Source: Bispira polyomma (Eukaryota). From it: DNA of 64,000 nucleotides. Each line of letters begins with the position of its first letter. The first letter of the stretch is position 1. The notes below the pieces were generated by a model. The model was not told the DNA's origin. It did no database searches and worked only from the letters and a program-made list of their open reading frames with translations. Shown here piece after piece: positions 11,476 to 41,004 of this stretch. The stretch covers positions 76,632,001 to 76,696,000 of the forward strand of contig OZ287752.1 of NCBI GenBank assembly GCA_965649765.1. Direction: 5' to 3'. The translations under genes were made by a program, and so were the position numbers.

Positions 11476-13500
11476 ATTGTCCACGTACTTGTGTTAGTTA
11501 TAACAGAATGTGGGTGTATCCCATGCCCCACAGAAGGCGCAAATATCCAAGGCAAAATTCTGGACTACTCTACAGGACTGCCCATAGCAAGTGCCATTAT
11601 AACAGCCACTGGCTTCGATAATACCTCATCTGATTCATACGGCAGCTTCTTTCTGGTGCTATCTGACACACAAGACAGCCGGCATGTACAGCTTATTGCT
11701 ACTCACATCCATTACACAGATTTACCCAGATATATTGCCATTTCACAACCAGGACAGTCACATATTGAGATCTTTCAAATGATCAAAAAAGAAGAACCTA
11801 TACAAATTGAGTCATCTGAGGACTCTACCCTGCCGCTCTTTGGAAGTTCTCCATCAGCCAAAAGGAAAAGAGCTGCAATAGGAAAAACAGGTAACAAAGA
11901 GCAACACAGATTTAGTGCTAATATTACTATTCCAGAGGACAGTTTTCTACAATTGGATGGCTCACAATATGATGGTAGTGTGAATGCCTCAATCACAAGT
12001 ATTGATACGTCTGACTTTAACGCCATGATAAACGCTCCAGCTGAGATGAGCTACATCAATAATAACGGTGATTTTCAGCCTTTAAGAGGTTATGCTTTGT
12101 TCACGTTAAACTTCATTGGTGCTTTAGTGGGAGAGAGACTGCAACTCCGACATAATATCTGTATTACAATGGAGCTACCTTATAGACTAAATAGTGAAGC
12201 AGCAATGTTTATGTACAATGATAAGTCAGCATCATGGGACAAGAACATTCAACTAAATGTGACTGAAATTGGCACTTCTATTACATCAATATCAGGATCG
12301 TTTTTTCTTCAGCATGATATTTCTTGGTTAATGATTGCCTCCGAGGTGGTATTAGATAACATTTGTTTCTCTAAGATCAAAGTCTATGAAACTAATAACT
12401 ATGATATCCCTGTGACTGACATACCCAATATTAAAATCATTGTCAATGACCAACCCAGTGGCAGTGTTCCAAATTATGGTGAGATTTCGAGTTTTAGGGC
12501 CATCTCAGATTCAGAAAATATTGAAGGATATTGCATTGCACACTCTTGTCAAAGAACCTCATCAGTACGACATTACACAGGTTTTTTTACAGCTGTAGGT
12601 GGAGTGAACTCTGATGTACCTTATCTAACACCAGCTCTAAATCATGAGGGAATCACAAATCAAACCGCAGAGCTTATTGACTATGATATTGATGACATTG
12701 CTGGTATACCACTAATCAGAGCCAAATTAAATTACAACATCATTCCAAAAGGTAACTATGGACCATATTACGACCAACATGATTACAACTGGCAACGATC
12801 AGATACCTGTTCGAAAATTCCTGAAGATCACTTCCGGTTTTACCTTAATAATGCTACCAGTGAAGATGAATCCTGCATCAAAGAAACTGAATTTAGCGTA
12901 CAGGAGGATGTACTGTCAGCCACAGACCCGGAACATATGAACAATCTGGCTTGGTTCAGCAGATCCCAGCGATCCCTGTATGACACCTGTTATGTGAAGG
13001 TATTGGTATCAAGTCCAGAACCGGTTTCCATAAGGGCTCTTAGTAAAGTCGGTAATATCTCTCACGGTGAGGACATCATTGCAGGGGAAACTCTGTATGG
13101 GTTTAGAGATAAATGTCAGCTTGGTGCCATGTGCCTGGAAGTGAAACATCCTGGAAAGGTGGCAGACGGTCAGATGGACTATACCCGCATTGAAATATCA
13201 CATCTAAGAAGTACAGGTAGTGATCTAGCTTGCAGCCTAACCGATATCAAGTGGGAAATAACTGCTGCCTATGGAGAATATATAACTACTTCACCAGGTA
13301 ACCCAGAGTTTCATATGTATTTGAAGAATTCTCCATTTGGGCCAACATTTGGTGTCTACTGTGTCAAAAGTGAGCAAAATAAGCAAACTGCGAGGAATAA
13401 AGCCAAGGCTATGTGTTACAGGGGGGATTATGATGATTCTCTAACTCTACTTGAGAAAGAAAATAGCGTCAATTGGGCTGTGAAATTTGATTGTCAATGA
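11476..13500 (+). CDS. Terminal exon of CILP-like paralog A (upstream exons not in window)
   Basis: Acceptor tttcag| at 11475, phase 0, intact 674 codons. Collinear with exon 9 of the 30737-41004 gene. Furin-type site KRKR at 11860-11871. AATAAA at 13600. Confidence 0.88.
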   Translation: MVHVLVLVITECGCIPCPTEGANIQGKILDYSTGLPIASAIITATGFDNTSSDSYGSFFLVLSDTQDSRHVQLIATHIHYTDLPRYIAISQPGQSHIEIFQMIKKEEPIQIESSEDSTLPLFGSSPSAKRKRAAIGKTGNKEQHRFSANITIPEDSFLQLDGSQYDGSVNASITSIDTSDFNAMINAPAEMSYINNNGDFQPLRGYALFTLNFIGALVGERLQLRHNICITMELPYRLNSEAAMFMYNDKSASWDKNIQLNVTEIGTSITSISGSFFLQHDISWLMIASEVVLDNICFSKIKVYETNNYDIPVTDIPNIKIIVNDQPSGSVPNYGEISSFRAISDSENIEGYCIAHSCQRTSSVRHYTGFFTAVGGVNSDVPYLTPALNHEGITNQTAELIDYDIDDIAGIPLIRAKLNYNIIPKGNYGPYYDQHDYNWQRSDTCSKIPEDHFRFYLNNATSEDESCIKETEFSVQEDVLSATDPEHMNNLAWFSRSQRSLYDTCYVKVLVSSPEPVSIRALSKVGNISHGEDIIAGETLYGFRDKCQLGAMCLEVKHPGKVADGQMDYTRIEISHLRSTGSDLACSLTDIKWEITAAYGEYITTSPGNPEFHMYLKNSPFGPTFGVYCVKSEQNKQTARNKAKAMCYRGDYDDSLTLLEKENSVNWAVKFDCQ

Positions 13501-13599
13501 CGCAATAGACAGAGAACAGTGCCTTAATCTCATTTTCAGATAAGAGGGTGTTTTATCAATCTTCCATAAACTTACATCAAATTACAAAATACTAGTTAT

Positions 13600-13605
13600 A
13601 ATAAA
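13600..13605 (+). terminator. Putative polyadenylation signal of paralog A
   Basis: AATAAA ~100 nt after the stop codon, at the homologous position in paralog B (41111). Confidence 0.6.
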
Positions 13606-14750
13606 AAAGTATTTTTTGTGTGTTTCAGCTACATGTGATTATAATTTGTAAATGTATGATTACCCACCCCAATGTTGTAAGTAAGATTTTATGGAAGCAC
13701 GAAGTATTAATCTGAAAAAAAGTTCAAGTTACATTATGTGAATGCAGAGAGTAAGTGAAGTCACTGAATTTCAATTGGTAAACCTAGGTCAAACCCTTAG
13801 AATCCCTGTACAAATTTCAACTTTCCTCGAGTCTATAAAAATCTGACCATGCAGTTCAAGCCTAATGATGTAGGAATTTCCTATGAGACAGATTGGCGGT
13901 TGTGACCTAGTTGTTATAAGTGTCTGCATTAATATCACTAGCCTCTCACCAATGAAGACAATGGTTTCAACTAGTTCCTACACCAAGGAAAGATTAATTA
14001 CTGAAGGCCAGAGGAGACCAATACAAATAGTACTGGTATCCTCCACAGGTAAATCTGGCTTTTAAAGTATTAAAAAAGATGTTGAGTGGGATTCTAACTT
14101 ACAACCTTACATTAACTCCCGTTCAGTACTAGCATTTTATCTTTTTTTGGGACATTATTCAAACTGACATTCGGGTATCAGGTCTCCCCCAAACACAGGT
14201 AAAACACCAAACAAATATGGAAGGAAGTTAAATAAAGAATATTGTTATGGGGCTGTCCCACTCTCCCGATCATAGCTCCTGACCATCCCGATTATACAAT
14301 TGGAAGCGAATCAGGACAACATTCAGAATATTCGGTAAGTTGTCTGACTTATCGTGGTCACTCAGGACAAACTTAGTCGCTTGTCCCAATTAAATAACAT
14401 GTTAGAAAACGGGGGCTTACGAGTTATCGTTCACTTCTCCTGAGTTATCCTGTCAAATGTTAACAATAGGTCATAAAAAATGCCCCGATTGTAAAGATTG
14501 CTCGGGAAGACAAACAATAGGTCTGGAGGAACAAAGGATAATTCAGGAGTGAAAACGATAACTCGGGCGCAAATTGGGGGCGGGAAGTGGATTGTATAAA
14601 AGGCAGGCGGGACACTCTTCCTTCAACAGAGTCATCCCAGCTTTCAGAGAGGAAACATCGATTTGAAATTTTTATTAGTGATAATTATAACAGGCTTTTA
14701 TTATTTATTATAAAGAATTAGTTAGACTTAGTTTATTAAATATTTCAATC

Positions 14751-16812: not shown

Positions 16813-18060
16813 CAAACACAGTCGTTCTGTTATGGCACTGCCCCTTCGTTCATAAAGTAATCCATCAGGGCATCTCTCTGTTCCTTGGCTACTCAGCTAT
16901 GATTTCTGATGTAAACTGGGTTGTGTTAATTTTCCAGCAGTGCATTCTGTGGGAGGGGGAGGGGGGTCATCTGCTGGGTTTGTGTGCTCTCCTCCCTGGT
17001 TGATATTTGCACTTCTGAGCAAGTTTGTGAAGGACTACATAGGCTAGGGTTAAGGTGGCTACCACAGGTGGTTCCTGCTGCATCGTCGAGAGCAAAAGTC
17101 TAAACCTCACCACTAATATTTCAAAGACATTCTCCACCACCCTTTTGCCCTGAGATATCCTGTAGTTAAACATGCATTGATTGGGGTCCGGCCCTTGTCT
17201 GGAAAAGGGTTTCATTATCCAAATTTTTAAGGCAAATTTGTGGTCTCCTATGATGAAATAGGTGGTGGGTGGCCTACCAGGGCTTATGGGTTGAGGAGCA
17301 GGAAAGTTGATACACTGGTCTTCAATCTTTTCCTTCAATTCAGATAGGTTGAAAATCTTGGAACCAGACCAGGAGCCACTGGAACCCAGGTCCACCTATA
17401 TGAAGCGGTACTCAGCAATAACCAGGCCCAGCACAAAGATGGAGTGGAATCACTTGTAGTTGAAGTACTCACTCCCCCCTTTCTTGGACATCTCATTGCT
17501 ATGTGTTTGCCATCTATGGCACCCAGAGCATTGGGGATATTCCAGCTGTCTCTGTATACAGCTGCGACCTTGGGGAGGTGGGGCAGCAGAGAAATTCCTC
17601 CTGGAATTTATCTATGCTAGCCTGGCAAACCTCAGAAACAAACGTGGTGATGGTTGACCAAATGTCTTAAAGTTATTGCAATCTTCAGTCCAGGGGACAG
17701 TGCTTTGCAGTACCAGGTCGTGTTTTTCCCAATCCGGTGGGCCACCCTCCTCTCCAAACCCGAGGTCATCCTCAAAGAGTTCCTATAAGACCATACATAT
17801 TGAGTCTCCATACATGGCAGAAGTGCAGAGTTGTGACTGTGCTTTTTCCTATCCCTGAGCAATGGTTTTATCCAGAACCTCCTTCGTGCTCTGCCTCTTC
17901 GGATTCCTACATTAATATCCTAATTCTGATTCTGTGCTAGTATGTGATTTTGTCTTCTTCTTCGACCCTGATAATCTGTAAATGCAAGTAATTGTATCTG
18001 CATAAATGCTAATAAAGCTTGTAGAATTCCAACCATATCTTTTATGATATGTGGTATCAT
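16813..18060 (-). pseudogene. Harbinger (HARBI1-like, DDE_Tnp_4) transposase, disrupted
   Basis: RRFWIKPLL, ALGAIDGKHI, YFNYK*FHSI, IIGDHKFAL..IMKPF, FNYRISQGKRVVENVFEIL..RF motifs. Confidence 0.9.
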
Positions 18061-18419
18061 GTTGCTCAATTGACTTCTCAATAAAAACTGTCTGGATTTG
18101 TGAGCTCTGCCCCTTTACATATGGTTTTGGAGACGAATCGGGTGGTTCTGTACGTCTCCCGATTGCAAAATTGAAAGATCTATCTTATCAGCGACCTAGC
18201 AGGATCGAGGTAGCGACCTGTTGGGAATGACAGCAACCTATCTTTACAATTGTAAGTAGTTGTACCGACATATCTTTGTCAATTGGGTGGATATATTTGG
18301 TTTGTACGAGTCAAATCCCCAATTTTACAGGATCTATAGGGTCTTGTTCCCGACCTATCCTTATAATCATTAACCAATACAATTATAGTCGTGTGATGTG
18401 AATTTTCTTGACGTAAATT

Positions 18420-23798: not shown

Positions 23799-26254
23799 TT
23801 AACAAGAAAACTTGACAGCCCAGTTATTTAATGTAGTCTCACTAAAATGTACCTTATCATCATTTGTTCCGGTCATGCACATATTCACAGCACGTTGTCT
23901 GGCTAGACCTTTGTCATGTACACCTTTAGCACAGTAGATACCAAAGTCAGGACCGTAGGGAAGATCTCGAAGTTGTAAGGAAAATCCCCCAGGTAACCAT
24001 TCCATGCCATCTGGATATATTTTCATTAATAAATGATTGATGTCCAATGGCATACACAAACCTTGCTCATGTATATGGGCTTGAATATTAAGCAAAGTGT
24101 TTTCATACTCAGATACACTTAGCCCATCTGTTACCAAGCCTGGATGTTTGACCTCAAGACATGATGCCTCAATCTGATGTTCTATACACTTAAAAGCTTT
24201 ACCATAGTCTATAAAATCATGGGATTTGTTTATGTAGCTTGCAGCTGTCAGATTCACAATAGCATGTTCAAGACTCATCTCTACCAGGACTTTGAGGTAA
24301 CAGACATCATATTTGTTTTGGTGAGACCTTGAAAACCACGCTTGAAAGTTTTTGTTTTGCTCTGCCACATTTTCTGGAGGAAATTTAATTTCCTCTAAGG
24401 CATAAGTAGTTGATCCATTTCCCAGATGAGAACAAGATGTTATGGCAGTAACTGTTGTATCCTCTGGTGTTTCTAATATGGTAACTGGTTCTGTTTGTTC
24501 TTCTGTAACACTTGTCATACCAATAACTGTTGTATCCTCTGGTGTTTCTGATGTAGTAATATGTTCTGTTTGTTCCTCTGTATCACTTGTCGTACCAATA
24601 ACTGTTGTATCCTCTGGTGTTTCTGATGTTGTAATATGTTCTGTTTGTTCCTCTGTATCACTTGTCGTACCAATAAGTGTTGTATCCTCTGGTGTTTCTG
24701 ATGTAGTAATATGTTCTGTTTGTTCCTCTGTATCACTTGTCGTACCAATAAGTGTTGTATCCTCTGGTGTTTCTGATGTAGTAATATGTTCTGTTTGTCC
24801 CTCTCTATCACTTGTCGTACCAATAAGTGTTGTATCCTCTGGTGTTTCTGATGTAGTAATATGTTCTGTTTGTTCCTCTAAAACACTTGTCGTACCAATA
24901 ACTGTTGTACTCTCTGGTGTTTCTGATGTAGTAATATGTTCTGTTTGTTCCTCTGTAACACTTGTTATATTATTAACTGTTATATCCTCTGGTGTTTCTA
25001 ATATAGTACTATTTTGTGTTTGTTCTTCTGTAACACTTGTCACATCATTATTAGTTGTGCTATCTATTGCCCTATCTATTGTACTATAGATCCATGGATC
25101 ACCTGAATTTGTTGTGAAATCTCTATCTGTGATTGTCTCTGGTATCTCTGATGCTGTACTGTTTTCAATGACATATTCTGTAGCAAATGTTATATGAATA
25201 TCTATTGTGGCATCTGTTGTTACAGCGTCATTACTTTGCCCCATCAGTTCATCTTGGGTACTTGATATCGCAGTGACTGTTGTGCTGTCTCTTACTTGTA
25301 AAGCTTTACTGTGTGTTTTGTGCTCTTCAGTGGTAACTATGATGGCCTTGTTCTTCTTCATGCCACCCATAAGACTACGCCTTATTTTCATCTGATCTAC
25401 AAACATATTCGTTTAGGTTAGTTTACTTTGGGTATAATGTTGTTTTCAACATGTCTTGTGTCATATCACGACATGAAGTTCACTGATGGAGGATTTCAGA
25501 ACGGGATAGTTGGTCAAGGTTTTTGTCTGCTCTGCAAATCACCATCCTTAAGGAAGTCAGGGCCAAGGGCCACGATTAGACCACAGTGCAATAAAATTAC
25601 TATTTATCCAAAATTGCACACTGCAACAGTTACTAGCACATAGTAATTCCATCAGTTAACACGTAAAAAATTCAAGTAATGTAGGAAATAGGAGTAGATA
25701 CAAACCATGTGGGTGCACCATTAGTTTGACAGAACAGATACTGTTACGTTGACCAAACACATTCTCCGAATACATTGTTAATGACATTCCATCAAAGTAT
25801 CTTGGCACATTTGAGATGAACAGCTTTCCACCGCTGCAATTTGCTAATGATGTTTGCTGATCAACATCAGTTTCTTTTATTTGATGGGTGCAAATCATAA
25901 TGTTTTCATCTGATATCCAGTCTATCTGCACTACATCATTGGGTAAACTTGAGTTACAAACTATTATGGCCCCCTTCCTTTCATGGACATGGACACCAGC
26001 AACTGAAAGAAAACTTTGAGGATATAAATATAGATATACATGTACGTGAAAGACTTTTAAGGAAATGATGTTAGTGAATGTTATTTGCCTGTTGTTTTCA
26101 AGAAAACAAACTTGCCAATAATGCATATATTATGATATAAAACTGGGTTATCGATATGATAGCTAAATTTACCTGTGCAGATATGTAGGCTTAATCCCAA
26201 ACTGCAAGTAATTATATATAATCCATATAAACCATGTCTTAGGTGTTGATCCAT
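23799..26254 (-). CDS. Secreted CILP-C-terminal-domain protein: signal peptide, Ig-like domain, Thr/Glu mucin-like repeats, Cys-rich C-terminal domain (~658 aa, 3 exons)
   Basis: Exons 26254-26173 (MDQHLRHGLYGLYIITCSLGLSLHICT, donor gtaaat), 26002-25706 (phase 1-1 Ig-like exon; ttttctttcag acceptor, gtttgt donor) and 25396-23799 (tttgtag acceptor). Phases are compatible. C-terminus AWFSRS..YDVCYLKVLV..CLEVKHPG..YGPDFGIYC..MC..NWAVKFSC aligns to the two + strand paralogs. Confidence 0.85.
24450..25040 (-). repeat. Coding tandem repeat, 75-bp (25-aa) unit, ~8 copies
   Basis: Unit EEQTEHITTSETPEDTTLIGTTSDT; DNA landmarks recur every 75 nt (24568, 24643, 24718, 24793, 24868, 24943). Confidence 0.95.
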
Positions 26255-26304
26255 TTTCACGAATCAATAGACCAAAAGCACACTGCCTGGTTCTGATCCT
26301 GATA

Positions 26305-26320
26305 ACTATATATATATAGT
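26305..26320 (-). promoter_or_regulatory. Possible TATA element of the secreted gene
   Basis: (TA)n run ~55-65 nt upstream of the ATG at 26254; could equally be a microsatellite. Confidence 0.3.
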
Positions 26321-27689
26321 CTAAGGTCTCAGTGTGGAAGTTATATCTAGTTAAAGTGGATGTGCGGTAACTGCTATCATTAAAACCAACAGCTATGAGG
26401 TATTTTTGATGTCACTAGTATGGTGCCCCTGTTAGGACATCCATTTTTCTTTTCACATCTTATTGAGCTCACAATTTTATTATGTGATCACAACTTATTA
26501 AGTTGTGCGCACAAGAATGATGTTGTGAGCATGATTTAATAAGTGAGCACAAGATGATATCATGATTACAAGATTATTTTGGGCTCATAACTTATTTTTT
26601 TGCTTACCACTTCAACTCGTAATCACCAAATAATTTCATGCTCAACAGACTATCTTATTAAGTAGTCAGCAAGAGATGTGGTGATCAATGATTTGATGAT
26701 CAACACAAATAATATGGGGGAAGTATTTTGATGACCGAACGGGGCTACATATAAAAATAATATCTGTTAAATATATCAAGATGTTTTTGTTATATGCCTA
26801 TGATATGTTTGTTTTTTTTTAAATATGATGATAGGTAAACCACATCTAGAGGATCTGTTTAATGTGCTTTTTATCTCAAACAGCCTCTTTCAATCACCGT
26901 AGTCACCAGGTTCCAAGATTCAATTGCACTGTTTCTCTTCTGACAATTTTATTGCCTTATATATCTTTAAAAGTGTATTATATTAAGACACCTTTATTGT
27001 CATAAATATCTTTAATTATGTAATATACTAAGATGGACGAAATGCACAATCAATAAGGATTAAGTCTCACATGCCTGGATTACTGCTAACTGAAACATAA
27101 AACCGACAGCACTTCGGATGATTTAGAGCCAAAACACTTCTAGTGATATTGTGTCTCCTGGGTGACCTTGTCCTCCTAAGGGTACAATCTTCAGATCTAG
27201 ACCGACAATCAATCCTGGGTCCCTCTGAGCGTCTTAGCACTAGGCCACAGGGACCAGTAAACCATAAAATGCTCATACTCGCATACAGGGAAAATATTAT
27301 TTAAAATTCAACTACCATGTGAATAAATTCCTACACAAACAAAGTTAACCCAATAAAATACATTTATGTGTTTTTGGTTTGGTGTAGTATTTATACAGCT
27401 TGTATTATAGCTTCAGTAATGTTGCCTGTAATACCTTTTTTACAAATCTATAAACATGAACTTATCTAGAACTCATAAATAATTTGTAGGAGTTTGTATA
27501 GATTTTTACAAGGTTTATTTCAATCTTCACCTACTAGATTAATATTTTTTTTTGTGCTTTCGTTAGATAAAATATTGCAGAACGGTTTAACTTGTTTCAT
27601 GATATGCTTTGGCTCTCCAGATAATAAAGAATTGTGCTAGTTGCCATGCTGGTTTTTGAACTACCATATACATTATGGACTTGAAACCA

Positions 27690-27975
27690 ACAGAGATAAC
27701 AGTTTTTACAAGTCTAATTTTCTACAAGAGTTGGGAATATCGTTAAAATAGACTGAATGGCCATATTTAAGAGTGTTGTATGTGAACAGGCCAATTTTGA
27801 ATTGAATTCTAAATTCTAGTTGAGGTGTTACATGGTTAACAAGTGAAGATCGATAACCACTTAAATACAATTTGCGAAATTTGCACACACATTATTCTTT
27901 TTAAGTCATGGTTAGATACAACACCAAAGAGAGAGGATTGAAGTAGTCTAAACAAGTAAATTGGTGAAGCAGCAG
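27690..27975 (-). mobile_element. CR1/L2-type LINE 3' fragment
   Basis: Degenerate RLDY.NS.L.G, VNHVTPQL, FRIQFKIGLFTYNTL..GHSVYF motifs. Confidence 0.6.
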
Positions 27976-29029
27976 TTCCATTCATGTCACGTAATTGTTG
28001 TGTCCTGTATAACTGTAAAATCGAGTTTGGCAGACTTGTTGATGAGAGGGTCATGATCAAACAAACACAAGGCAGTGTCGAATACACGTTTTTTGGATGT
28101 ATGTATATTCTGCCAAACATATATAAACGTTTATAGATGTTTCTATAAATAAAAAACGTCATTTTCAATTTCGTAATAACATAGAACATCACCGCAGATG
28201 CCATTTGGTAACATGGGGGAAGAAACAGATGAAGTATTCCAGTTTTATCTGTTTTGTTCATTGAGAGCCATTCTTTTAATATGGGCAAAATAAGAAAATA
28301 ATTTGCTATAGAATCTGTAGAATACAAAATACCTTGGTTTATGATGTGTTTGTTTAAATAATGGGTTATATTTTTTCTCCCTGCACAGGAAGTTTCTGTC
28401 ATGTTTAAGGTTTAAAGAAGGTTTAAAATGGTGTGCTCCTAAACTTTTGTATATAACTGTTTATAAACAATCATGTGTTAATGTTTACAAATGTTTAGAA
28501 ACCCATTATTGTAAACCTTTGTGGGCAGGGATACGCTAGACGTGTCCAAAATAATTGAAAAAGTCAAAAACAAGAAAACCTCTAATACAAGTGCAATACA
28601 AGTTTTCACTATTAGAGAACACAATGGGCACAGTAAGGGGATGGGGGGGGGGGGGAGTTACACAAAGTGAATACTTTAGTGACACTCCTCTGAACACAGA
28701 ATAGCAGAGGTGTCAACAATGTTGGAGGCGCTTGTGTAAGTACACATTCACTTAGTACATAATGTACTCAATTATTTAAATTTGACTGAACCTTCAAACT
28801 TCAAAGTTTCAATTCATCACCAACTCATGCTATGGTGACCTCGCACCTGATGCTACGGTAACCCTACACCCCACTTAAGGTGATATTATGCTCTCAACTT
28901 AAACTGAAACTGTACATAGAACAAGTAGCTCTTAACTTAGAATTAATAAAATATTTACCGCAATCTTTTTTCTGTCTGTTGAACTTAAAAGTACAAACTG
29001 ATATTTTCTGCTCATTTTTTTTTGCTTAC

Positions 29030-29960
29030 GTCTAAATAAACTTGGCTTAACATCCCGAGGCATTGTTATCCTATTCCACTTGGTAAGCCTATCAAGAGAA
29101 TAATATGATCAATGGTGCCATATTCAGCAGAAAGATCAAGTAGTGCGAGTGCATTGAAAGCACCAAGCATTAAAAAGGAGAAGTAAATCCTGTCTCATCT
29201 GAATGTATTCAAAGGTTTGAAAAAGCTTGAAATTCGAAAAGGTTTCTAATTTTTAAGGATCTCTTTATCGAAAGACATTTTTTCAAGAGTGGGGTAACCA
29301 TGTGCTTATTGGAAGGGGGCCTGAAGTGACCAAAATATCAAGGTATTTAAGGACTACAAAGGGAGACCCTCAGCCTTGGCAACATGGGTTGACAAGGGAT
29401 TTAGGTATGATATTATGAGATTTTGCTTTCATACAGAATTTGTTATAATGGTCATGTACAAATTATGCACAAGAACACATTTGCGAGTTGGAAAATTTAC
29501 CTGAATTAGGTCCAATAAAAAAGAGATTGGACACTATTGAAGGAATTGGATCGATAATGCATCACCTTGTCAATTGAAATCTCTGAGCACCACTTAGTCA
29601 TCCGTGGTGGGGTGAACCGAAACTAACGAGATGCAGATTGATGCAGATCGCCAGTGATAGGTTATTTACAGCAGGGGAGTCCATGTCAGAATTGCCACGG
29701 TCGAGATGACCATGCATTGTCATCACAAGGATCGCACATTAATTAAGTAAATATCACCCCTAAGTGACGGTACAATCGTGAAAAGAATGGACTGGTCACA
29801 CAATGAATGAGTTGTAGTCGAGTTTGGGGCGAGCTAAGAAAATAATTTGCACATGAGGTGATCAATGAAGTCACCCCTAAATCTAGTATGAGCTTTGTAT
29901 GACCAGTGTGAATTCTATGTCGGCTTGACTGCCTAGACTCTTCAGATACATAAAAGAACA
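29030..29960 (-). mobile_element. Highly degraded CR1/L2-type LINE fragment (EN/RT remnants)
   Basis: HTGHTKLILDL (EN-like) and LDLSA..GTIDHIILL.RL (RT-like) remnants. Confidence 0.45.
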
Positions 29961-30736
29961 ACCATAAGCTTGATATTGTTGACTATTATACTACAAAGCA
30001 GCTACCATGTTTGTTTCTCTGTATATTTTGACTTTCTCATAGAAAATGATATCTTATATAATACTGTGTTAGTGAATAGTAACTGCAAACCACTTTGGCC
30101 AAAAAAATTGAATTACATACTATGATATTTACATGACATAAACCGAAACGTTTTTTTGTTTTTCAGGTTAGTTAAATGTAAGTATCTGCAGAAGGACCAG
30201 TTTAAATGTTCATGTAAAGAAATAAAATTTTTGGGGATACATGTAAAAAGATAAATCATAAGTCAACTTGAGGAGCTTAATTTATTGACTCTTGTAATTT
30301 TTATAAAATACAGCTTGTTTGTACTTCATGTTTGACAGTCATTGAAATTATAGCCAAAAACCTCAACCACATTCCTGAATAAGTACTTGGTGGTATCATT
30401 AATAAGTCTTCAATTGTTTCATATATCATGCTAATAAAAAGTGAGCTGACAATATAAAATTGTATTGATTAACAATTATACTGATTCCTCCAAGAGTATG
30501 TACAAAGTGTACAGCCTCGTTTTGGTATAAAATCATAGTAAATAGGTCACTTTAGGTTGGTTTGTGGGTTCTGATTGGCTGACATAGTAGTTGAACATTT
30601 TCATGAAGTAATTTGATAGCATTTCTTCTGTATTATTTCCTGAAAAAACATTTCAATGCTCACAATTAAAGTATATATGTATCACTGTGGTAATTAATAC
30701 ATTTGTGGCTGTTTACTTCTACACAAAGCTGACATC

Positions 30737-33700
30737 ATGAGCTGGCAGGGAAAAATGGAAGGAAAACCCTTGTCAGATACTGGATACACCAGTCTGCAAG
30801 AGACTGAGATATCACATGATACTAAATCTGACATAAGTAGCGCTCAAACTGACATCAACAGTACTGAAGAAACTTTGCCATACAGAAAGATGAATGGAGA
30901 CTTTGTGATCCGATTTACTGGAAATAACGAGTTGAAATCAATTGATGAGGACATACCGTATTGTAATAAATCATTTCACTGGGGAGAGGATGGTGACGAG
31001 AGAAGATTTGCTGAAGAATCAGATCATAATGTCAACAATGCCACAAGAAAAGGGCTTCGGGAGAAGAGTCAATCCCATGGAATGTCTTCCTACATGACTA
31101 GCAGTGGGATTGGGCCAACATTTTACCACAACACTGGTCAAGGAGGACATCTATCCGAGCAAGCTATCGGTGGATTTGACAGTCATCAACAACCCGTCAA
31201 TGAAAACAAAGGATACACTGGAAAAAGTCAAGGCTTAACCAATGAAAATGCAGACTGCACTAAACATGTGTATCAAGGTCACTGTGTTCCAACCAGTGAT
31301 TACCCAGAGGAGGATTATCTAACCAGCAGTAATACAGAAACTACTTTTAATGGAGAAGTTCTACAAGATGGCTACAGCTCTGTTAAGCATCATACTGGCT
31401 TATCACAAGGCAGTGGTTATACCAAACCTTTGCAGTCTGGAGACAGTTACAGGAAACTTCAACTCGGAGATGGTGAATATATTCATCCAGATAATGACAT
31501 TAAGATCTACGAAGACTGCTCTCAGGGTGGAAAACAAGATGGCTACCATGAAATTGCTTACAAAGATATAGATCCTGATTACCCAGGATCAATGGGTTAC
31601 ATACTGCAGCCACTACGTAAGCCTGCTCATTTAACACTAGGTGGAGCTACAGTTACTTCTATGGATGATCACGGTTGGTCTGATTGTGTACACTTTCATG
31701 TTTTACATTTCAAACTGTTAAAGTTTTACAAATTATGTTCTTTCTCTTGACAAAATGACTTGTACAAATATGAATTTGTCCAAGTTTGGGTACAGGTAAA
31801 TGAGTGTTATCACTGTACCTTTTTTACAGTATCAGAGGATTATCTGACGTTACCTGAATCAGCTATCAGACCACTACCCAAGCCCCCAAGATCCACCACT
31901 CGGTGTAGCAGACCTTGCCAGTGGAAGGCAGTAGGTGTTGTGATAATTGTGGTGCTGTTGGGTGCCATTATTGGTGGTATACTGATTAGTGGACACAGGG
32001 ATGATACAGAAACAACAACAGGTAGTTGCATGCACTTTTTGTACTGTTGGAATTTCACTAACCTGGATTTAGTTCCATGGTCAGAGAGTCCAGTGACTCA
32101 CAATACAATACAATAAAAAGTATATAAGATACCAGAATCTATCTATTTCACTAACCTGGATTTAGTTCCATGGTCAGAGGGTCCAGTGACTTACAATACA
32201 ATACAGTAAAAAGTATATAAAATGCCAGAATCTATCTAAAAATATGAATTGACACAACAATGAATTAATTGGGTCTGTATATCCTTCATTGAACAAAAAT
32301 GATGTTTCATTTGGAGATTGACAGTTGACAGTTCTTTAATCTGGCAGAAGATCCCTACCAAAGTTGTGCTTCTTTAGTGAAATTTCAGGAACGATCATCA
32401 CCTGCATGTGGCAGAGTAGAAAAGATGGATTCAAGAACTGTGTCATTGCAATTTATAAATAGTACAGTGGCCTAGTACAAGGGAGGTCAATTAATCTGTT
32501 TCTTAAAGAACTCATTATTTTAGTAGATTCAAGAACTGTGTCATTGTATTTTATAGATAGTACAGTGGCCCAGTATAAGGGAGGTCAATTAATCTTTTTC
32601 TTAAAGAACTCATTATTTTAGTAATTTCCCTCAGATAACTAATCATGTTTATCTACTCAGGAAAGTCAATCACAGTTTAAATGTTTTATCTGCTTTAAAA
32701 GCTGGATTTCTGACCTGGCTCGTGACGAAAAAGAGTTGTTGTGTGAAATAGGGAAAAACTTACAAACCCATACTTGTACCGTATTGTTCGTATAATTGCT
32801 ATACATATGCTTAGAATGAACTGTATATTCACAAATATCTATAATAATCATATTACTATACAATGTGCTTATTAATTTTTATTGTAGCCTATTGCATTTC
32901 TTTTATTGTAGCATTGATTTAAGCATAGGAAATTAAATGTACTTTTTCTATATCCATTTTCTGTCTCATAAACTAAGCAAATAAATGTGGCATTTCCTAG
33001 AGTTTTTTTGTTTTTTTTTGCTTTACTTAGCTGTACCAACTCCTGGATTGTCAGGCTGGACAGAGTGGACAGACTGGTCATCTTGTGACAAGACATGTGA
33101 CCAAGGAATACATACCAGGTCACGTGTATGTCGATCAGAAAAGGAAGTGTGTATTGGTCCAACTGAGCAGGCAGAGACTTGTATTGACCAACTCTGTCCA
33201 GTCCCTCGTAAGTTTACAAATCATACGCATCACGTACATACTTAGGGACTCCCATAGAGTGACATAGAGTCATCTCCAAAAAATGTTGAATTTTTAATCT
33301 TCTTCAAAAAATCCCTGAAATTGGAAAAAAGAGTGGTTCATATATAAAAATAAAACTCAAAATATGTAAAAAGGCACACTACACTACATTGTTGAGTTTA
33401 ATTATATTGTTGTTTGTCACTTTTTTTTAGAAAATATGTAACAAGCTGTTTTAAATGGATGTATGTGGTATTATACACTAACAGTTGAATTCGGTTGAAT
33501 GTAACTACATGCTATGATGTTTATGACCAGTGTTATTTGTTTTATAAATGATATATATAAAATTGTTAAATTAACAAGGGTTAAAATGTAATCATTGTAT
33601 TATTAGTATGTTGAAAAAATTAGGCCCTGAAACGCTTTGACATGAACTCTCTATACATGCCCTGAAGACTAAAATGAACTAAGAATGCCCGGAATGCTGT

Positions 33701-36700
33701 ATGTGTAATGGTTTTTCCTTGTTTAGCACGGGGAGTTTGGAGTTCCTGGAGCCAGTGGTCAATCTGTTCAGTGACCTGTGGACCAGGGGTTCAGGTCAGA
33801 ACTCGACATTGTGAGGAGTCTGGTGATAAGGACTGTGTGGGAGATTCTGGACAGCAAAGGGACTGTAACCATGGAAACTGTAAAAGTAGGAAGATTTGTT
33901 TTTGGTTTGAGTATATAAGGCATAATCTTGTATTATTGATTCTGAATGTGAATGTAAAAATACTGTTGTGTCATTTGATATTACATCATCCATTTTTTAG
34001 GCCAAATACTAAACATGAATGCCAAAAAAATCTATTGGGTAATGAATTTTTTTTTAACATTTTGTCTATCTAATCAAGCAACTTTTTTTTCAAAGTGGAT
34101 ATTGTATTGAAATAACGCATTTAATTACCAAATGTGTATCAACAGTGTTTATGTGTTTAAATGTGTAACAATATCACTGAAACTGAAAACAATCCAATGA
34201 ATTTGACTATAAAACGTGGGTATAGCTTTTGTGTAGAAGATATTTTCCTCTGAAATATGTTATGTAGCCACAATAGCTTTAATTAAATATCCTTTAATTT
34301 TTACGTGATTCAATTTGGAGATTTTCTTAAATTTTAAAAGTCACTATTTAGGAATGCAGAAAAGTTGAAATATATACCAGTTGTAATTGTGCTATTCATA
34401 ACTAGTATTTAATATTAAGTAAAAAAAAAATAATATGTATTTGTCCTTACATAAATATTAAATAGTGTACTGTAAGCCTGTAAGGATGGGTGTTAGGCTT
34501 TTTGGAGCAAATTTACTTTAACAGTACCAATTATGTTTACCTTTTTCGAAATGGCAGAAAGATTTGTAGATTTAAATTGTTCTTTTGAAGAACTTTTTAG
34601 ACAATTTGGAAGACAATAAAGCATTAATAGGTAGTTCATGACAGTTAGAAAGAAATAGTTTAGCACAACAAAGGGGCAAAGCTCCCACACCCCTTCTTAA
34701 ACTTTTAAAGTGGACTTAGTGACGGCAAATTGCACTTAATTATTCGGTGAAATTCTTGTATACCACATTGCCATTAAAATAAAAACCTATGTAAATGTAT
34801 GTATCTATATATCTTACACAGACTGTAACTTTTCCTGCCCTGGAGGGGGTGTAGTGATCACTGATGTCACTTGTGACCAGTGTAAATGTAATCAGTCCAG
34901 TACACTTCAGCTCACAGTCACAGATACTAACAACATACCTCTGGATGGGGTCACCATAAGTGATAAGCAGTGGGCAGGAAAACAACTGGCCATCTCAAAC
35001 TCAAATGGACAGATAAAACTAGATGGGGTCTGTAGCGGAACTGTGTTGATGTTCCTTAGAGCTGGCTATGTGACACAGGAGATAACAGTGTCTGTTACTA
35101 TGGATACAAGGATACGCTTGGCTAAAATAGGTTATAAATAAAACGATATGCAGTAGGACCTTTATTATCCAAACATGTTGGGAGAGCAATAAAAGGTTCA
35201 TATAAAATAGAAGATGCATTTCAGTGTGTAAAACAATAGGACGTCAATTGGGGAGAGTAAAACCGAATGTTTGGGTTACAAGAAGTTTCAGATAATAGAG
35301 GTTCTACTGTATTAGTAATGCTTATTAGTCGTAATGTTTTCACTTAAAACGAATTTTTAGGTTTTTTATTTTTTGGGGGTTTGCTAAAGCAATAGTGAAC
35401 AATTTAAACCAGACTGAGAATTTAAAAGTTTCCTGGTTGTTTAGTTGAAAATGATGAGAAATGATCAAATTCAATGAATTCCATATATTTACTTTACATA
35501 TCCCTCTACTATATTGTAAATGTTTGAAACTTTATTCCATCAAAATTGCTACTTATAAAATTAACAGTGTTTCTTGTATCCTAGTTCTACTCTACATAAC
35601 TGCCCACCCACAAAACAAGCTTAGATTGACAGGAGAATCAGTCCGATTATGCTGTACTGCAGAGGGCAGCCCACCGCCTGAGTACTTTGAATGGTATTTC
35701 CTTGGATATTATTTTGCAGTTGAACCCATTTTAATCGAAGCTCAAGGAACCATGAGAAATAACTCAGGATTTCTACTTAACAGGGCAGATTTTTTATAAA
35801 GGCATATAATGAAATTGTATTGAATATAAAAGAGTTTTACTTAAAAGGGTTTGATTGCAGTTATTTTTGATGTGGTTCAACTTTACCATTGCTAGATTGT
35901 ATCTATATTGTTCAACCGAAGTTATATATATTTAATTAATATTTGACCACTTTTAAAGCTCTTATCTCTCAACAGCCATCCTACCTTGCTGCTCACCTTT
36001 CTTTCCCTTCAGAGGGGAAAGATACTTTGTGTTTCCTCAGTCAAACCTGCCAAGAGGGCTGGATCCAGAACTTTCTCTGTTGCTACCGCTTTGTTATGGA
36101 ATAGGCTCCCAGCTGAGCTTAGATCACTTAAAACACTTTCTGGGTTAAGAAAAAGCTTGAAACATATCTAATCAAACTCCCTTATCTTCCTTAGTTCCCT
36201 CCATGTACACCCACGATCTTTTCTTACCACCTTGGCTATGCTTTTTTTGACTTCTCGATTGGTTGATTATATTGTTGTAGTTTAGAAGATGCCTTACATC
36301 AATCAATAAAGCGTGTCAAATACCATATACATCACAAAGGGTGTTACCTACCTCAGTAACTCACCAGTATACTTGTACATACCACCGTCATCCAAGCAGT
36401 TGAAATTGAGCACCAGTGTAAGTTTTTGCTCACACATGTTAGTTTATGTTATCCAGTTAGGGACTGTATAACCAAACAATGGCTATGGTAGCCATGATTT
36501 AGTTGATGTTGTTTGTAATGTATATCACAGGTATCGAGATGGGATATTTGTGAAAGACATTTGGGGTGACAATTACACCAGTGAATTGTCAGTGAGCTCC
36601 CTGAGCCAAACGAATGATGCTGGAGGGTACACATGTAAGGCCCATAACAGATTCAGTGCAGTCACTTCATATCCTGGGACACTGGTCATAAATAGTAAGA

Positions 36701-39700
36701 TTTTTTTCAGTTGCTAAGTTGGGGTTTAACATTAATTTTGACACGTTTTTCAGTCATATAATGATGTGCAGGATCTCATAGCAGGTTAGTTGGTCTAGGG
36801 TTTTTTTGTGCTCCAAACCACCAGCCTTCAGCAAGTCTACTTCCGCCCATACATGCCATACAGTCGAGATTCAAACCCATGACTACAGAGGTAGGAAGGC
36901 GAGAGTGTTACCTCTACACCACTGAGGCCCATATATGGTACAAAGTGAATGGCCCAGGGTCATCAAGCAATTCAGGAAGTTTCTCAATATCATCCAATTA
37001 GATTCCATGGAACAATATTTCCAGCTAATCAAAATGTTTTGAAGTTAAAAATAAGAATCGTTTTGGAATACCAGCCCTAAATCTTTAACATATCGCATTA
37101 ACCGTGGAATTAGCTAACCCTATGAAATAATGACACTAAACAAGACAAAAACGTGTACATGTGTAGACGTGATGAAAGGTTCTGCACTGAAGCCAGCGGC
37201 CCACAGTAAGGAACTACCACATTTCTCACATAGGCATTGACAGGATTCGAACTCACGCCGCCCAGAGGTGAGAGACCAGTGATTGTGAAGCACAATGCTT
37301 GCTAACCACTAGGCCACCACGGCCCCAGATATTTTAGTACAGCAACTGGAAGAGCAGGAATGAGTTCATCAACTTGAATATTTTACAATAGAAGTTTGCA
37401 TCAAATACATGTTTTTACACTATATGATATAGCACATAGTGTCTATAATCACTACACTTACAATTGCTTTCTGGGGCCACGGTGGCCTAGTGGTTACATC
37501 AAAGAATTTGCTTCACTATCACTGGCCTCTGACCAATGTGGGTTTCTATCCTGTTCCCTCCTTTATCTGGAAAAGTTTGACAGGTACTAGCCACTATAGG
37601 CCGGTGTTTTACAGTGTTTCAGCATTGGTTTCCTCCACCATTCAATCTGGCTGCTGTAATATGATCTAAGCCATTGCAAGAAATGTAAAAACTCAGCTAT
37701 ATCTAATTTTAATTTGTTTTTGTGTTGACTTTTCCATCAGATGCCATATCGGCTTTCTGTCAGACATCTCTACAGTCTAAATCTATCACTATTAACAACT
37801 GTGTGGATAATAAACCTGTACAAGTAGACGTTGGGAAGTGTGAACCTCTGCCATGCCGCAATACTAACTCTGACAATGATGACAGCTCTTGTGGCAACAA
37901 AGGCGGACTTTGCTGTGGACCAAAATCTACAGCTACAGATACAGTAGAATGTGGTGTAAGTTACTCCTTATACAGACATATTACATACATCCATGACTGA
38001 ATCTATAGAATTGCAAAACTTGAAAGCTACTCAGTAGTGCAAATTTTATTGCTATTGGAATTTTGATTAATAAATATAGTTACCTCAGCCGCAAAAAGTG
38101 ATATAGTATCCTCAACGAGGCCTATGAAATGGTACACCTGTTTTACACACACACTAGGTCATCGAGAATGTGTACACTGTGAGATTGACATCCCTTCTCA
38201 GATTGTTAAGGTCACCATATAGCTTTTTCAGCATGTGTGCTGAGCCCATAGAGATATGCTAGCAAATTTACCGGAATTCCAAGTACTACATTTTATGACA
38301 GATGATCATTACTGAAAATCATCACATGACTAGGCTCTGTGGCTTTAACAACTGTTATGTAAAGGTGTCTACACGCTAATTTCATTTTCCTGTACCTGCT
38401 GTCATTTTGGGTATAACTATAGTCCTTGTATTGTAGATGTCCATAAATGACTTTCGTCCTGATACGTTGGTCAAAGTCAGATATATTAAATTGTGCTAGA
38501 TAGAGTCAATTCCACTTCATTTTCTCACACAGAGGGTGTTTGAATTGCTGCATTTGTTGTCCAAAAATGTCCGTCCGACAGAGCGATTTTAATTTAATTT
38601 TATTCTCAACCCGATTTTAACCAACCTAGATCCCACTTCACCCCAGATATGTTCTGAAATTTTATGAACAATTCTTACCTGGCCTATGCCACATCCCTCC
38701 ACCAAATTTGACTGAAATTGTTTCAGTCAGGTATGTGTAATCTTGATGACAAAGAAACCGTTGGACACAGGTAAAATTCTAACATCCTCAGCAAAACATA
38801 TGACTTGAATTGTCATATACTAGGTCATTTTGGTGAACCGTTACTACTTCCCAATAAACCTGCAAAGCTAAGAGTACTTTTATGTTGTCAAATCATATAG
38901 TACAGAATCCAAACTTTTGTTTTACAAAAGGGTTTGTAAATTATTGCCAGTGTTATTTAAACATATATTTCAGACTGTCCACGTACTTGTGTTAGTTATA
39001 ACAAAATGTGGGTGCATCCCATGCCCCACAGAAGGCACGAATATCCAAGGCAAAATTCTGGACTACTCTACAAGAATGCCCATAGCAAGTGCCATTATTA
39101 CAGCCATTGGCTTCGAGGCAGGAAGAACCTCATCTGATTTTGAGGGCAGCTTCTTTATGGTGCTATCTGACACACAAGACAGTCGGCATGTACAGCTTAC
39201 TGCCACTCATATCCATTACACAGATTTACCCAGATCAATTTCCATTTCACAACCAGGACAAGCACACATCGAGATCTTCCAAATGATCGAAAAAGAAAAA
39301 CCTATACAAATTGAGTCCTCTGAGGATTCTACCCTGCCACTCCTTGGAAGTTCTCCATCAGCAAGAAGGAAAAGAGCTGCAACAGGAAAAACCAATCAAG
39401 AGCAATACAGTTTCAATTCTAATATTTCTATTCCAGGGGACAGTTTTCTGACACTAAATGGTTCCGAATATGATGGTAGTGTGAATGCATCAATTACAAG
39501 TATCGATACGTCCGACTTTAACGCCATGATAAACGCTCCAGCTGGGATGAATTACATCAATAATAACGGTGATTTCCAGCCTTTAAGAGGTTATGCCTTG
39601 TTTACATTAAACTTTATTGATGCCTCAGTGGGAGAGAGGCTGCAACTTCGACATAATATCAGTATTACAATGGAGCTACCTTATAGACTAAATGGTGAAG

Positions 39701-41004
39701 CAGCAATGTTTATGTACAATGATCAGTCAGCAACATGGGACAAAAACATTCAACTGAACGTGTCTGAAACCGACACTTCTACTACAACAGCAATATCAGG
39801 ATCGTTTTTTGTCCAGCAGGATATTTCGTGGTTAATGATTGCTGCGGAGGTCGTATTGGACGACATTTGCTTCTCTAAGATCAAAGTGTATGAAAATAAT
39901 AACTATGATAACCTAGTGACTTACATACCCAATATTAAAATCATTGTCAATGACCAACCCAGTGGCAGTGTTCCAAATTATGGTGAGATTTCGAGTTTTA
40001 GGGCCATCTCAGATTCAGGAAATGTTGAGGGATATTGCATTGCACACTCTTGTCAAAGAACCTCATCAGTACGCCATTACACAGGTTTACTTACAGCTGA
40101 AGGTGGAGTGAACCCTGATGTGCCTTATCTAACACCAGCTCAACATCATGAGGGAATCACAGATCAAACTGCAGAGCTTATCAACTATGATATTGATGAC
40201 ATTACTGGTATACCACTAATCAGAGCCAAATTAAAGTACAACATCATTCCAAAAGGTAACTATGGACCATATTACGACCAACATATTTACAACTGGCAAC
40301 GATCAGATACCTGTTCGAAAATCCCTGAAGATCACTTCCGGTTTTACCTTAATAATGCTACCAGTGAAGATGAATCCTGCATCAAAGAAACTGAATTTAG
40401 CGTACAGGAGGATGTACTGTCAGCTACAGACCCGGAACATTTGAATAATCTGGCTTGGTTCAGCAGATCCCAACGATCCCTGTATGACACCTGTTATGTG
40501 AAGGTATTGGTATCAAGTCCAGAACCGGTTTCCATAAGAGTTCTCAGTAAAGTGGGTAATATCTCTCATGGTGAGGACATCATAGCAGGGGAAACCCTGT
40601 ATGGGTTTAGAGATAAATGCCAGCTCGGTGCCATGTGCCTAGAAATAAAACATCCTGGAAAGGTGGCAGACGGTCAGATGGACTATACCCGCATTGAAGT
40701 ATCGCACCTAAGAAGTCCAGGTAGTGATATAGCTTGCAGCCTAGCTGATATCAAGTGGGAAATGACTGCTGCATATGGAGAATATATACCTACTTTACCT
40801 GCTGACCCAGAGTTCCATATGTATTTGAAGGATTCTCTATTTGGTCCGACATTTGGTGTCTACTGTGTCAAAAGTGAGCAAAATAAGCAAACTGCGAGGA
40901 ATAAAGCCAAGGCTATGTGTTACAGGGGGGATTATGATGATTCTCTGACTCTACTGGAGATGGAAAATAGCATCAACTGGGCTGTGAAATTTGACTGTCA
41001 ATGA
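30737..41004 (+). CDS. Type II transmembrane CILP-like protein (paralog B), 9 exons, ~1430 aa
   Basis: Exons 30737-31673, 31830-32021 (TM AVGVVIIVVLLGAIIGGILISG), 33031-33207 (TSP1), 33727-33885 (TSP1), 34822-35130 (Cys-rich + carboxypeptidase-regulatory-like), 35585-35693 and 36531-36694 (Ig: HPQ..VRLCC.AEGSP..W...DAGGYTCKAHN), 37741-37955 (Cys-rich, CCGP), 38974-41004. All introns are GT-AG with matching phases; total 4293 nt. Furin site RRKR at 39364-39375. Domain order matches the CILP family. Confidence 0.9.
32052..32237. repeat. Tandem duplication, ~93-bp unit x2, intron 2
   Basis: atttcactaacctggatttagttccatggtcagag...ccagaatctatct repeated directly. Confidence 0.9.
32429..32623. repeat. 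Tandem duplication, ~97-bp unit x2, intron 2
   Basis: gattcaagaactgtgtcattg...aagaactcattattttagta repeated directly. Confidence 0.9.
35151..35309. mobile_element. MITE family A copy
   Basis: CAGTAGGACCT...AGGTTCTACTG|TA. Confidence 0.75.
35950..36320 (+). mobile_element. CR1/L2 LINE 3' end fragment
   Basis: AGSRTFSVATALLWNRLPAELRSLKTLSGLRKSLK is typical of the L2/CR1 ORF2 C-terminus. Confidence 0.75.
36715..36930 (-). mobile_element. tRNA-derived SINE, degraded
   Basis: Minus strand begins GGGCCTCAGTGGTGTAGAGG, has a B-box-like GGGTTTGAATCTC and ends ..tgttaaacccc. Confidence 0.55.
37175..37326 (-). mobile_element. tRNA-derived SINE (same family as 10582-10833), 5' part
   Basis: Near-identical to 10690-10833; A box GGTGGCCTAGTGG, B box GAGTTCGAATCC. 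Confidence 0.85.
37473..37700 (+). mobile_element. tRNA-derived SINE, related family
   Basis: GGGGCCACGGTGGCCTAGTGGTTA head; internal tttcctccacca; similar to decayed copies at ~41423 and ~13895. Confidence 0.65.

Follow-up and report, generated by a model that had tools for sequence, protein, structure and literature searches.

Gene organisation of the locus

Four CILP-like genes were recognised at the locus, covering about 57 kb in the order C' (-), A (+), C (-) and B (+). All gene models were built from splice signals and homology, without transcripts. The cluster consists of a head-to-head pair in two tandem copies, C'/A followed by C/B, and its left part falls outside the window, i.e. 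the whole stretch of 64,000 nucleotides analysed. The first-pass annotation had reported a three-gene cluster within 30 kb; the cluster is real, with a fourth gene and a larger extent that the window edge had cut. All four proteins end in the Pfam domain CILP_C, detected with 68.3 bits in A, 62.3 in B, 54.9 in C and 60.2 in C' (cut-off 27). Seven cysteines align across the four domains, confirming the common Cys domain first noticed in A, B and C, and the identity of C to A and B over this domain is 37-38%.

Gene B runs on the plus strand from an ATG at 30737 to a stop at 41004, with 9 exons bounded by AG/GT and a product of 1430 aa. Exon 1 (30737..31673) encodes a predicted cytoplasmic tail and exon 2 (31830..32021) the end of this tail and a predicted type II transmembrane anchor. 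The 345-aa tail comprises 19 tyrosines, several of them in acidic contexts, and precedes a hydrophobic helix at residues 347-365 (hydropathy 3.14); a genome search retrieved no relative of it except the tail of A. Beyond the helix come two TSP1 repeats (exon 3, 33031..33207; exon 4, 33727..33885), a Cys-rich linker with a first carboxypeptidase-regulatory-like domain (exon 5, 34822..35130), an Ig domain divided between exons 6 (35585..35693) and 7 (36531..36694), and CILP_5th (exon 8, 37741..37955). Exon 9 (38974..41004, 676 aa) encodes a second carboxypeptidase-regulatory-like domain, a beta-sandwich, CILP_8th and CILP_C. Both regulatory-like matches are below the Pfam cut-off and the second was confirmed by fold, the predicted model giving a match with Z 13.8 and rmsd 1.7 over 81 residues. 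An RRKR furin motif (residues 885-888) is found in a low-confidence loop of the predicted beta-sandwich, between predicted strands 119-122 and 149-153.

Paralog A had been placed at 11476 on the plus strand. Its orientation and family were correct; positions 11476..13500 correspond to its last exon only, and C' accompanies it. Exons 1-8, encoding tail and anchor, are located 1.4-10.5 kb left of the window (G000:C5:76621533-76630605, plus strand), making A likewise a predicted membrane form. Most of its last intron (12.9 kb in all) occupies 1..11475 and is filled with antisense LINE copies. The last exon encodes a carboxypeptidase-regulatory-like domain, a probable ZU5-like sandwich, a CILP_8th-like region and CILP_C, and is 88% identical in amino acids to that of B. 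A follows the family domain order from TSP1 to CILP_8th, the latter being matched by a custom profile, without a Pfam CILP_8th match. A frameshift is present near the start of A. No indel was found over exon 1 in any of the three DNA runs, which rules out an assembly artefact; A may be made from an ATG downstream of the frameshift, or may be fading.

Gene C runs on the minus strand from an ATG at 26254 to a stop at 23799 and encodes 658 aa in 3 exons. Exon 1 (26173..26254) contains the ATG, with an in-frame stop four codons upstream, and a predicted signal peptide; exon 2 (25706..26002) is a single-exon Ig-like domain of phase 1-1; exon 3 (23799..25396) carries a Thr/Glu-rich linker, including a 75-nt (25-aa) unit repeated about 8 times at 24449-25041, then CILP_C and the stop. 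The predicted model of this CILP_C (pLDDT 87, pTM 0.87) had no clear fold match (Foldseek none at E 0.001; VIA best Z 6.2), which is not proof of a new fold. C', the short partner of A, lies on the minus strand to the left of the window (G000:C5:76616111-76619379), and its Ig exon is the only clear relative of the C Ig exon found in the genome. An origin of the C Ig exon as a copy of the B Ig domain was rejected, the exon structures being different and the genome search giving no match between them; nor did it match an amphioxus-like relative. On the minus strand at C and C' there were no matches to TSP1, CILP_5th or CILP_8th, and C has no WxxW domain despite its signal-like start. Judged from their predicted domains, C and C' are truncated, shuffled derivatives of the CILP family.

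The start codons of C and B are divergent and separated by 4483 bp, as previously described for a secreted short form beside a membrane form: C begins with a signal-like sequence and B with a predicted anchor. C' and A are also head-to-head, the C' start being 2154 bp from the ATG of A. The region between the C and B start codons (26255..30736) shares colinear blocks, 70-79% identical, with the 2.15-kb C'-A intergenic region, and a promoter common to C and B would lie within it. No inverted similarity between C and B was detected at the DNA level. Overlapping short-read contigs from three runs span 24936-32081 without differences, which rules out an assembly error as the source of the divergent arrangement; the runs are DNA because their reads cover introns. 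The duplication is not an artefact either, with a dS of about 0.2 and the letters of both copies present in the short-read contigs.

Head-to-head pairs in the CILP-like family

We counted at least 32 family genes in the genome. Nine of the 20 adjacent pairs are head-to-head, distributed across 6 loci: 4 associate two membrane forms, 2 two secreted forms, 2 are mixed and 1 is unassigned, according to predicted topology. The mixed pairing is restricted to 2 of the 9 pairs, both at the C'/A and C/B locus. Close copies of the minus-strand gene of a pair on C4 exist at C12:40.6 with no partner, which implies that pairing is not obligatory in the family. Reduced forms are of two kinds: secreted forms with only CILP_C (C, C', four genes at C5:58.7 and one amphioxus protein) and membrane forms with only the N-half (at C5:25.6). 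The family having been reduced to CILP_C in this way, C offers a natural single-domain probe for CILP_C binding.

In the phylogenetic trees, pair partners group by locus. Together with the small share of mixed pairs, this makes it likely that the pairs arose by repeated local inverted duplication. The clade joining C with A/B received 91/34 and 85/71 in the best trees and is not starred, i.e. lacks strong support. A single clade of minus-strand partners was rejected (p-AU 3e-13). This also rejects, under the single labelling examined, whose group was defined once a tree was known, the spread of one ancestral pair through the genome. Placing every short secreted form (C, C' and the C5:58.7 genes) in one clade was not rejected (p-AU 0.35), so that the gene from which C descends may have been short already.

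Could the head-to-head layout simply follow from local inverted duplications in a family with fast turnover, with C and B each functional in a separate job and not co-regulated? Pairs of every kind exist, their start-to-start distances vary from about 1.3 to 20 kb, the inversions at C5:58.7 are recent, and only 6 of the 8 clusters hold a head-to-head pair (P = 0.084 under random orientation). Against this, head-to-head junctions exceed tail-to-tail ones, 9 to 5 (P = 0.011 for at least 9 of them, duplicated units not being independent), both two-gene clusters on C5 are head-to-head, and the contig sizes described below suggest old linkage here and at two other loci. We consider this explanation possible and, on balance, doubtful.

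Linkage, variation and function of the C/B pair

Both pairs of copies, B/A and C/C', are under purifying selection: dN/dS is 0.33 for the B/A ectodomain, 0.16 for the B/A CILP_C and 0.34 for the C/C' CILP_C, with intact frames. Linkage of C and B looks old. For their orthologs P0001 (of C) and P0009 (of A/B) alike, the longest contig measures 582,006 bases; the two are apparently linked in another assembly, a link deduced from the equal contig sizes. The expectation of conserved linkage thus gains indirect support. Equal longest-contig sizes give a similar hint at two other loci. Metagenome scans for DNA around the orthologs and a word-index search for long homologs returned no match.

The first-pass annotation had proposed a receptor with a soluble partner. 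The membrane/secreted contrast, the layout and the terminal domain stood; the recurrence of head-to-head pairs at 6 loci, with 6 of the 9 joining two genes of like predicted topology, and the grouping of partners by locus speak against it, and the idea is not needed for explaining the layout. In its stronger form, B and A would signal as receptors, with C and C' as soluble ligands or partners dedicated to them, the set working as one functional unit. The pair was indeed duplicated as a unit of which selection has kept both members, its linkage is likely conserved, and the tail of B is long and tyrosine-rich. Yet the two mixed pairs go back to a single event; next to about 20 further predicted membrane genes no short partner was found in the genome stretches examined; and tails vary in length and sequence across the family, that of B being related to the A tail only. 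Moreover, B has its own predicted furin motif upstream of CILP_C and could itself release a soluble CILP_C-bearing fragment, which counts against a dedicated ligand. A complex prediction between the B last-exon region and the C CILP_C (score 0.00, run without alignments and with an uncertain partner fold) counts neither for nor against this unit. Such a receptor-ligand unit is distinctly unlikely: possible, not favoured.

A polymorphic self/non-self recognition locus is another reading, by analogy with the loci for allorecognition or self-sterility in tunicates: membrane and secreted genes are linked, Ig and TSP1 domains occur, the tail is rich in tyrosine and the multigene family is large. 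We find this very improbable, since paralog dN/dS is below 1 in all extracellular regions and the tail (0.16-0.65), exceeding 1 only in the 31-codon anchor exon region. Moreover, all 21 listed differences from C and B in the three DNA runs (two samples, one study) are paralog-A letters. On the population polymorphism suggested earlier as a check, no allelic variation was seen in the two samples, weak evidence as assembled contigs drop rare variants.

The reading we prefer, with a probability of roughly one half, is a tandem-duplicated head-to-head pair of a membrane CILP-like gene and a short secreted CILP_C gene derived from a local inverted copy of a 3' end, the two being co-transcribed and acting on a common extracellular target, one tethered and the other soluble. 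The four genes, their orientation and domains, the purifying selection and the family census are demonstrated, and the following steps are proposed from them. An inverted copy of the 3' end, encoding the terminal domain of the family, would have founded the short gene, which would then have acquired an exon for the signal sequence, an Ig exon of unrelated origin and a Thr/Glu-rich spacer, all this before the divergence from the species with P0001 and P0009. The whole pair would have been duplicated in tandem later (dS about 0.2-0.3). B would sit at the cell surface in type II orientation and be cut by furin inside the ZU5-like sandwich; the halves may remain together non-covalently, as read from secondary structure only, and the C-terminal 542 aa could be shed. 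C would display the terminal domain that it has in common with B on a glycosylated stalk, serving either in the matrix or as a soluble competitor. C and B would likely be co-transcribed and likely have one common extracellular target.

Relation to known systems

Of 35 long homologs, 21 have a predicted type II anchor, among them RefSeq CILP-like proteins from five invertebrate phyla. As far as predicted topology goes, the membrane form is thus the common invertebrate form of the family, and the lineage-specific character first attributed to the locus does not hold. Among the CILP-like RefSeq/UniRef proteins of Glandiceps, Saccoglossus, Amphiura, Mercenaria, Lingula and Owenia, 7 of the 10 looked up are named records with a predicted type II anchor, and the four scanned have the domain order of B. 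These records are automatic annotations and fall outside the clade of the genome's own genes. The amphioxus protein XP_078598593.1 (P0066, 524 aa), like C, is short, starts with a signal peptide and carries CILP_C. A literature search, covering few subscription papers, found nothing on invertebrate or membrane-anchored CILP.

The usual furin motif of the family, just before CILP_8th, was found in 48 of 62 homologous rows and in 12 of the 23 genes checked in this genome; A, B and P0009 lack it. In the alternative loop used by B, R-x-K/R-R occurs in 2 of 43 rows, B and P0009, while A has KRKR. From this alignment, B has lost the usual site and carries a predicted one in a different loop of that domain, and the moved site suggests that the cut itself matters. 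A bolder reading can be drawn, in which membrane-anchored CILP-like proteins would be undescribed invertebrate cell-surface sensors, ancestral to vertebrate CILP. Their ZU5-like domain would be cut as in adhesion GPCRs or Notch, holding as two halves until pulled or bound, with signalling through the tyrosine tail; in this lineage the cut site would have disappeared and re-emerged in a different loop, and a soluble CILP_C decoy, co-expressed with the receptor, would have been assembled next to it and retained across species. We regard it as rather unlikely.

The ectodomain of FAM171A1/FAM171A2 (PDB 9y63, 9y6n; PF10577) consists of two domains, a carboxypeptidase-regulatory-like one and, behind it, a ZU5-like sandwich, as described in bioRxiv 10.1101/2025.09.18.675241. 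The B model likewise has a regulatory-like domain followed by a beta-sandwich. B gave weak in-register profile matches to both FAM171 chains (E 0.78 and 1.5), PF10577 was found in 2 of 81 alignment members, and no direct fold match to FAM171 appeared among the matches listed for the B model. The sandwich of B and A is a putative ZU5-like domain. FAM171 proteins are type I, have only these two domains and form trimers, whereas B is predicted to be type II and has more domains.

Linked membrane and secreted recognition genes are known in tunicates (Botryllus fuhc-sec/fuhc-tm, Ciona s-/v-Themis), and plant NLRs include head-to-head paired genes; these are hyperpolymorphic or functionally proven pairs. 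The CILP-like pair resembles them in having tightly linked partners of different topology or role, and the proteins are unrelated.

CILP, the cartilage intermediate layer protein, is a secreted matrix protein of vertebrates, which have two CILP genes, compared with at least 32 family genes here. Human CILP is cut by furin into N- and C-terminal fragments, according to PMC7251193. Vertebrate CILP1/CILP2 (Pfam PF23591, PF23708, PF23730, PF23599) share with B the order TSP1, carboxypeptidase-regulatory-like, Ig, CILP_5th, CILP_8th, CILP_C, and the vertebrate-type CILP P0028 aligns end to end with the last exon of B (23% identity, E 2e-32). A furin-type motif is common to both, that of B being in another loop. 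Vertebrate CILP begins with a signal peptide and WxxW; in A and B, whose scanned exon frames gave no WxxW match, a tail rich in tyrosine and a predicted type II anchor take their place. Of the family's domains C has kept CILP_C alone, preceded by an Ig exon of unrelated type and a Thr/Glu-rich repeat. Most invertebrate relatives are predicted to be membrane-anchored, as opposed to the secreted, furin-cut CILP of vertebrates. The C/B pair is a variant of the known CILP family, for which a common outside target is likely and is favoured over a receptor with its ligand.

Two divergent gene pairs in tandem

In this animal genome of 1.04 Gb, the window covers G000:C5:76632001-76696000. Its gene B (30737-41004, plus strand) comprises 9 exons with AG/GT ends that join into a single open frame of 1430 amino acids. 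Its N-terminal tail of 345 amino acids, with 19 tyrosines, is followed by a hydrophobic helix (347-365) and, in a Pfam scan, by two TSP1 domains, a carboxypeptidase-regulatory-like domain, an Ig domain and CILP_5th; the last exon (676 amino acids) carries CILP_8th and CILP_C, all CILP domains being those of the cartilage intermediate layer protein family. As the helix comes without a signal peptide, B is predicted to be a type II membrane protein. The minus-strand gene C (26254-23799) has 3 exons encoding 658 amino acids: a signal-like start, an Ig-like exon, a stretch rich in Thr (29%) and Glu (15%) that holds a 75-nt repeat, and CILP_C. The start codons of the divergent C and B, placed about 4.5 kb apart by the first-pass annotation, are indeed separated by 4483 bp, and the assembly across this intergenic region is backed by short-read contigs.

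The same annotation described a three-gene cluster of A, C and B. These genes are present, but the locus has a fourth one outside the window, and the "paralog A" inside it is the last exon of gene A and nothing more, sharing a 2.8-kb block with B (86% identity) and having LINE copies on its left. Exons 1-8 of A, including tail and anchor, were found in the DNA neighbouring the window, as was C', a second short gene head-to-head with A and 2154 bp from its ATG. The locus thus reads C'(-) A(+) C(-) B(+) and is one pair duplicated in tandem. Between B and A dS is 0.21, and between the CILP_C domains of C and C' it is 0.28; dN/dS is 0.33 for the B/A ectodomain, 0.16 for the B/A CILP_C and 0.34 for the C/C' CILP_C. 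In exon 1 of A the frame shifts near codon 60 (G000:C5:76621533-76621730, L009:9533-9730); the shift is present in both samples, with no indel there in any of the 3 runs. An ATG directly after it, which B lacks, opens a stop-free frame of 1364 amino acids, and the gene is intact beyond this point. A polymorphic recognition locus seems very improbable. All 21 listed differences between the short-read contigs and C and B are letters of paralog A, which is weak evidence against high polymorphism.

Several mobile elements were observed. On the minus strand of the window, a 364-amino-acid frame with a coiled-coil-like start (4808-5899), which we take to be LINE ORF1-like, has a UPF0029/IMPACT-type domain at its end (E 4.8e-20) and is followed by endonuclease and reverse-transcriptase frames (3263-2). 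Between A and C, DDE_Tnp_4 transposase remnants (16970-17919, minus strand) are probably those of a Harbinger-type element, and similar pieces are present in other clusters of the family. Left of C', L006-L009 contain an LTR-type element whose integrase precedes its reverse transcriptase, together with a SCAN-domain frame, and also two retroelements with a tyrosine recombinase that are probably DIRS-like. Beyond the right edge of the window, some 9-13 kb away, are Ig-domain exons of another gene (L011:9108-9425 and L012:2328-2732 (-)).

The CILP-like family in the genome

The genome was searched with a CILP_C protein and three Pfam families as queries, followed by domain mapping of 12 regions. 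At least 32 family genes were recovered, 30 with CILP_C, and a hydropathy screen predicted from single frames an anchor exon in 22 of the 32. The 20 adjacent pairs, across 8 clusters, are 9 head-to-head, 5 tail-to-tail and 6 tandem. Under random orientation, at least 9 head-to-head pairs are expected with P = 0.011, duplicated units not being independent; for 6 of 8 clusters with such a pair, P = 0.084. Four head-to-head pairs are membrane+membrane (two on contig C2, one on C4, one at C5:25.6), two are secreted+secreted (C5:58.7, signal-like exon in 3 of the 4 genes), the A/C' and B/C pairs are mixed, and the partner types of one (C5:57.95) were not assigned. By these types, the head-to-head layout is a habit common to the CILP-like family, and mixed membrane/secreted pairing is the exception. 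That C and B are devoid of functional coupling appears possible, if rather unlikely.

Individual clusters showed further features. At G000:C5:25642900-25681500 (L062-L066), anchored head-to-head genes carry TSP1, regulatory-like, Ig and CILP_5th domains, and the C-terminal half was undetected in both, making them the complement of gene C. Four recent short genes at G000:C5:58742400-58788450 (L022-L027) form two head-to-head pairs with signal-like starts, unassigned Cys-containing N-terminal exons and an intron splitting CILP_C; in one of the genes the frame is shifted and an exon duplicated. At G000:C12:40637600-40693100 (L104-L109), the C4 minus gene occurs in two close copies with its partner absent, one without detected 5' exons and the other interrupted by a stop and by frame breaks. 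Directly behind the C4 plus gene, a frame (G000:C4:61533242-61533898, L032) resembles a VWA domain by eye, and a VWA domain follows CILP_C in the protein P0005.

Relatives and putative origin of gene C

In CILP_C trees, head-to-head partners cluster by locus, and in one of them starred branches part the C2, C4 and C5 groups. The protein P0001 branches as sister of C/C', and the protein P0009 as that of A/B (100/99 in each case); in the best trees the two lineages form one clade, modestly supported (91/34; 85/71). Placing every short secreted form in a single clade was not rejected either (p-AU 0.35). P0001 is built like C, with a Thr-rich stretch ahead of a C-terminal domain that shares 51% identity with the CILP_C of C, and the CILP_C of P0009 is 69-72% identical to that of A/B. 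The longest contig has 582,006 bases for P0001 and P0009 alike, which suggests that their genes lie on one contig of another species. Equal longest contigs were also found for P0018 and P0004, which are related to the C2 pair, and for P0008 and P0011; the other 5 of the 10 proteins compared share no such value. Separately, a single clade of minus-strand partners and their close relatives was rejected (p-AU 3e-13, for one labelling and a group named after a tree had been seen).

The analysis establishes the layout of the locus, the domains, the purifying selection and the family census. Beyond these we favour, with a probability of about one half, a joint reading in which C would derive from the terminal domain, copied locally in inverted orientation, with exon gain, and C and B would likely be co-transcribed from the short divergent region, a putative shared promoter. 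B would be a matrix or adhesion protein tethered to the cell surface and cut by furin, with C as a soluble bearer of the same terminal domain, acting as matrix component or competitor.

Membrane anchor, furin site and known relatives

At E 0.001 a profile search matched 259 proteins, and 150 of these were listed. Among the matches listed, 35 have at least 990 amino acids: 21 with a predicted type II anchor, 9 with a signal peptide and 5 ambiguous. Among ten proteins looked up, seven with the anchor are named records (Glandiceps, Saccoglossus, Amphiura twice, Mercenaria, Lingula and Owenia), and a short form from amphioxus is among the rest. The ingroup of the genome's genes is supported at 99/97 against three outgroup rows, which marks the expansion as specific to this lineage; the membrane anchor is widespread. 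CILP-like proteins are annotated in many invertebrates. Our literature search turned up no account of a type II anchor in them, of the family's expansion, of genes paired head-to-head, of forms reduced to CILP_C or of the shifted furin site.

The usual furin motif, R-x-K/R-R, occurs in 48 of 62 homologous rows and is absent from A, B and P0009. At an earlier loop it is found in B and P0009 alone (2 of 43 rows), gene A having KRKR there. The model of the B last exon (pLDDT 87, pTM 0.70) contains a carboxypeptidase-regulatory-like domain (Z 13.8), then beta-rich domains. In it the loop with B's motif sits between strands 119-122 and 149-153, from which we infer that the halves of B may remain together after the cut. 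The CILP_C of C is confidently folded in its predicted model, and a fold search gave no clear PDB match for it. Human CILP, according to passages of PMC7251193, is cut by furin, its N-terminal part binding TGF-beta and its C-terminal part having limited enzyme activity. A dedicated receptor (B) with C as its ligand is improbable beside the tethered B and soluble C that we favour.

Profile matches to FAM171A1 and FAM171A2 are weak; Liao et al. in 2014 reportedly grouped CILP and FAM171 among ZU5-like domains. According to a study of human FAM171A1, the protein has a carboxypeptidase-regulatory-like domain followed by a ZU5-like sandwich, and a term search of the study found no mention of CILP (bioRxiv 10.1101/2025.09.18.675241). 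This regulatory-like and ZU5-like order may resemble the regulatory-like and beta-rich order predicted by the model of B.
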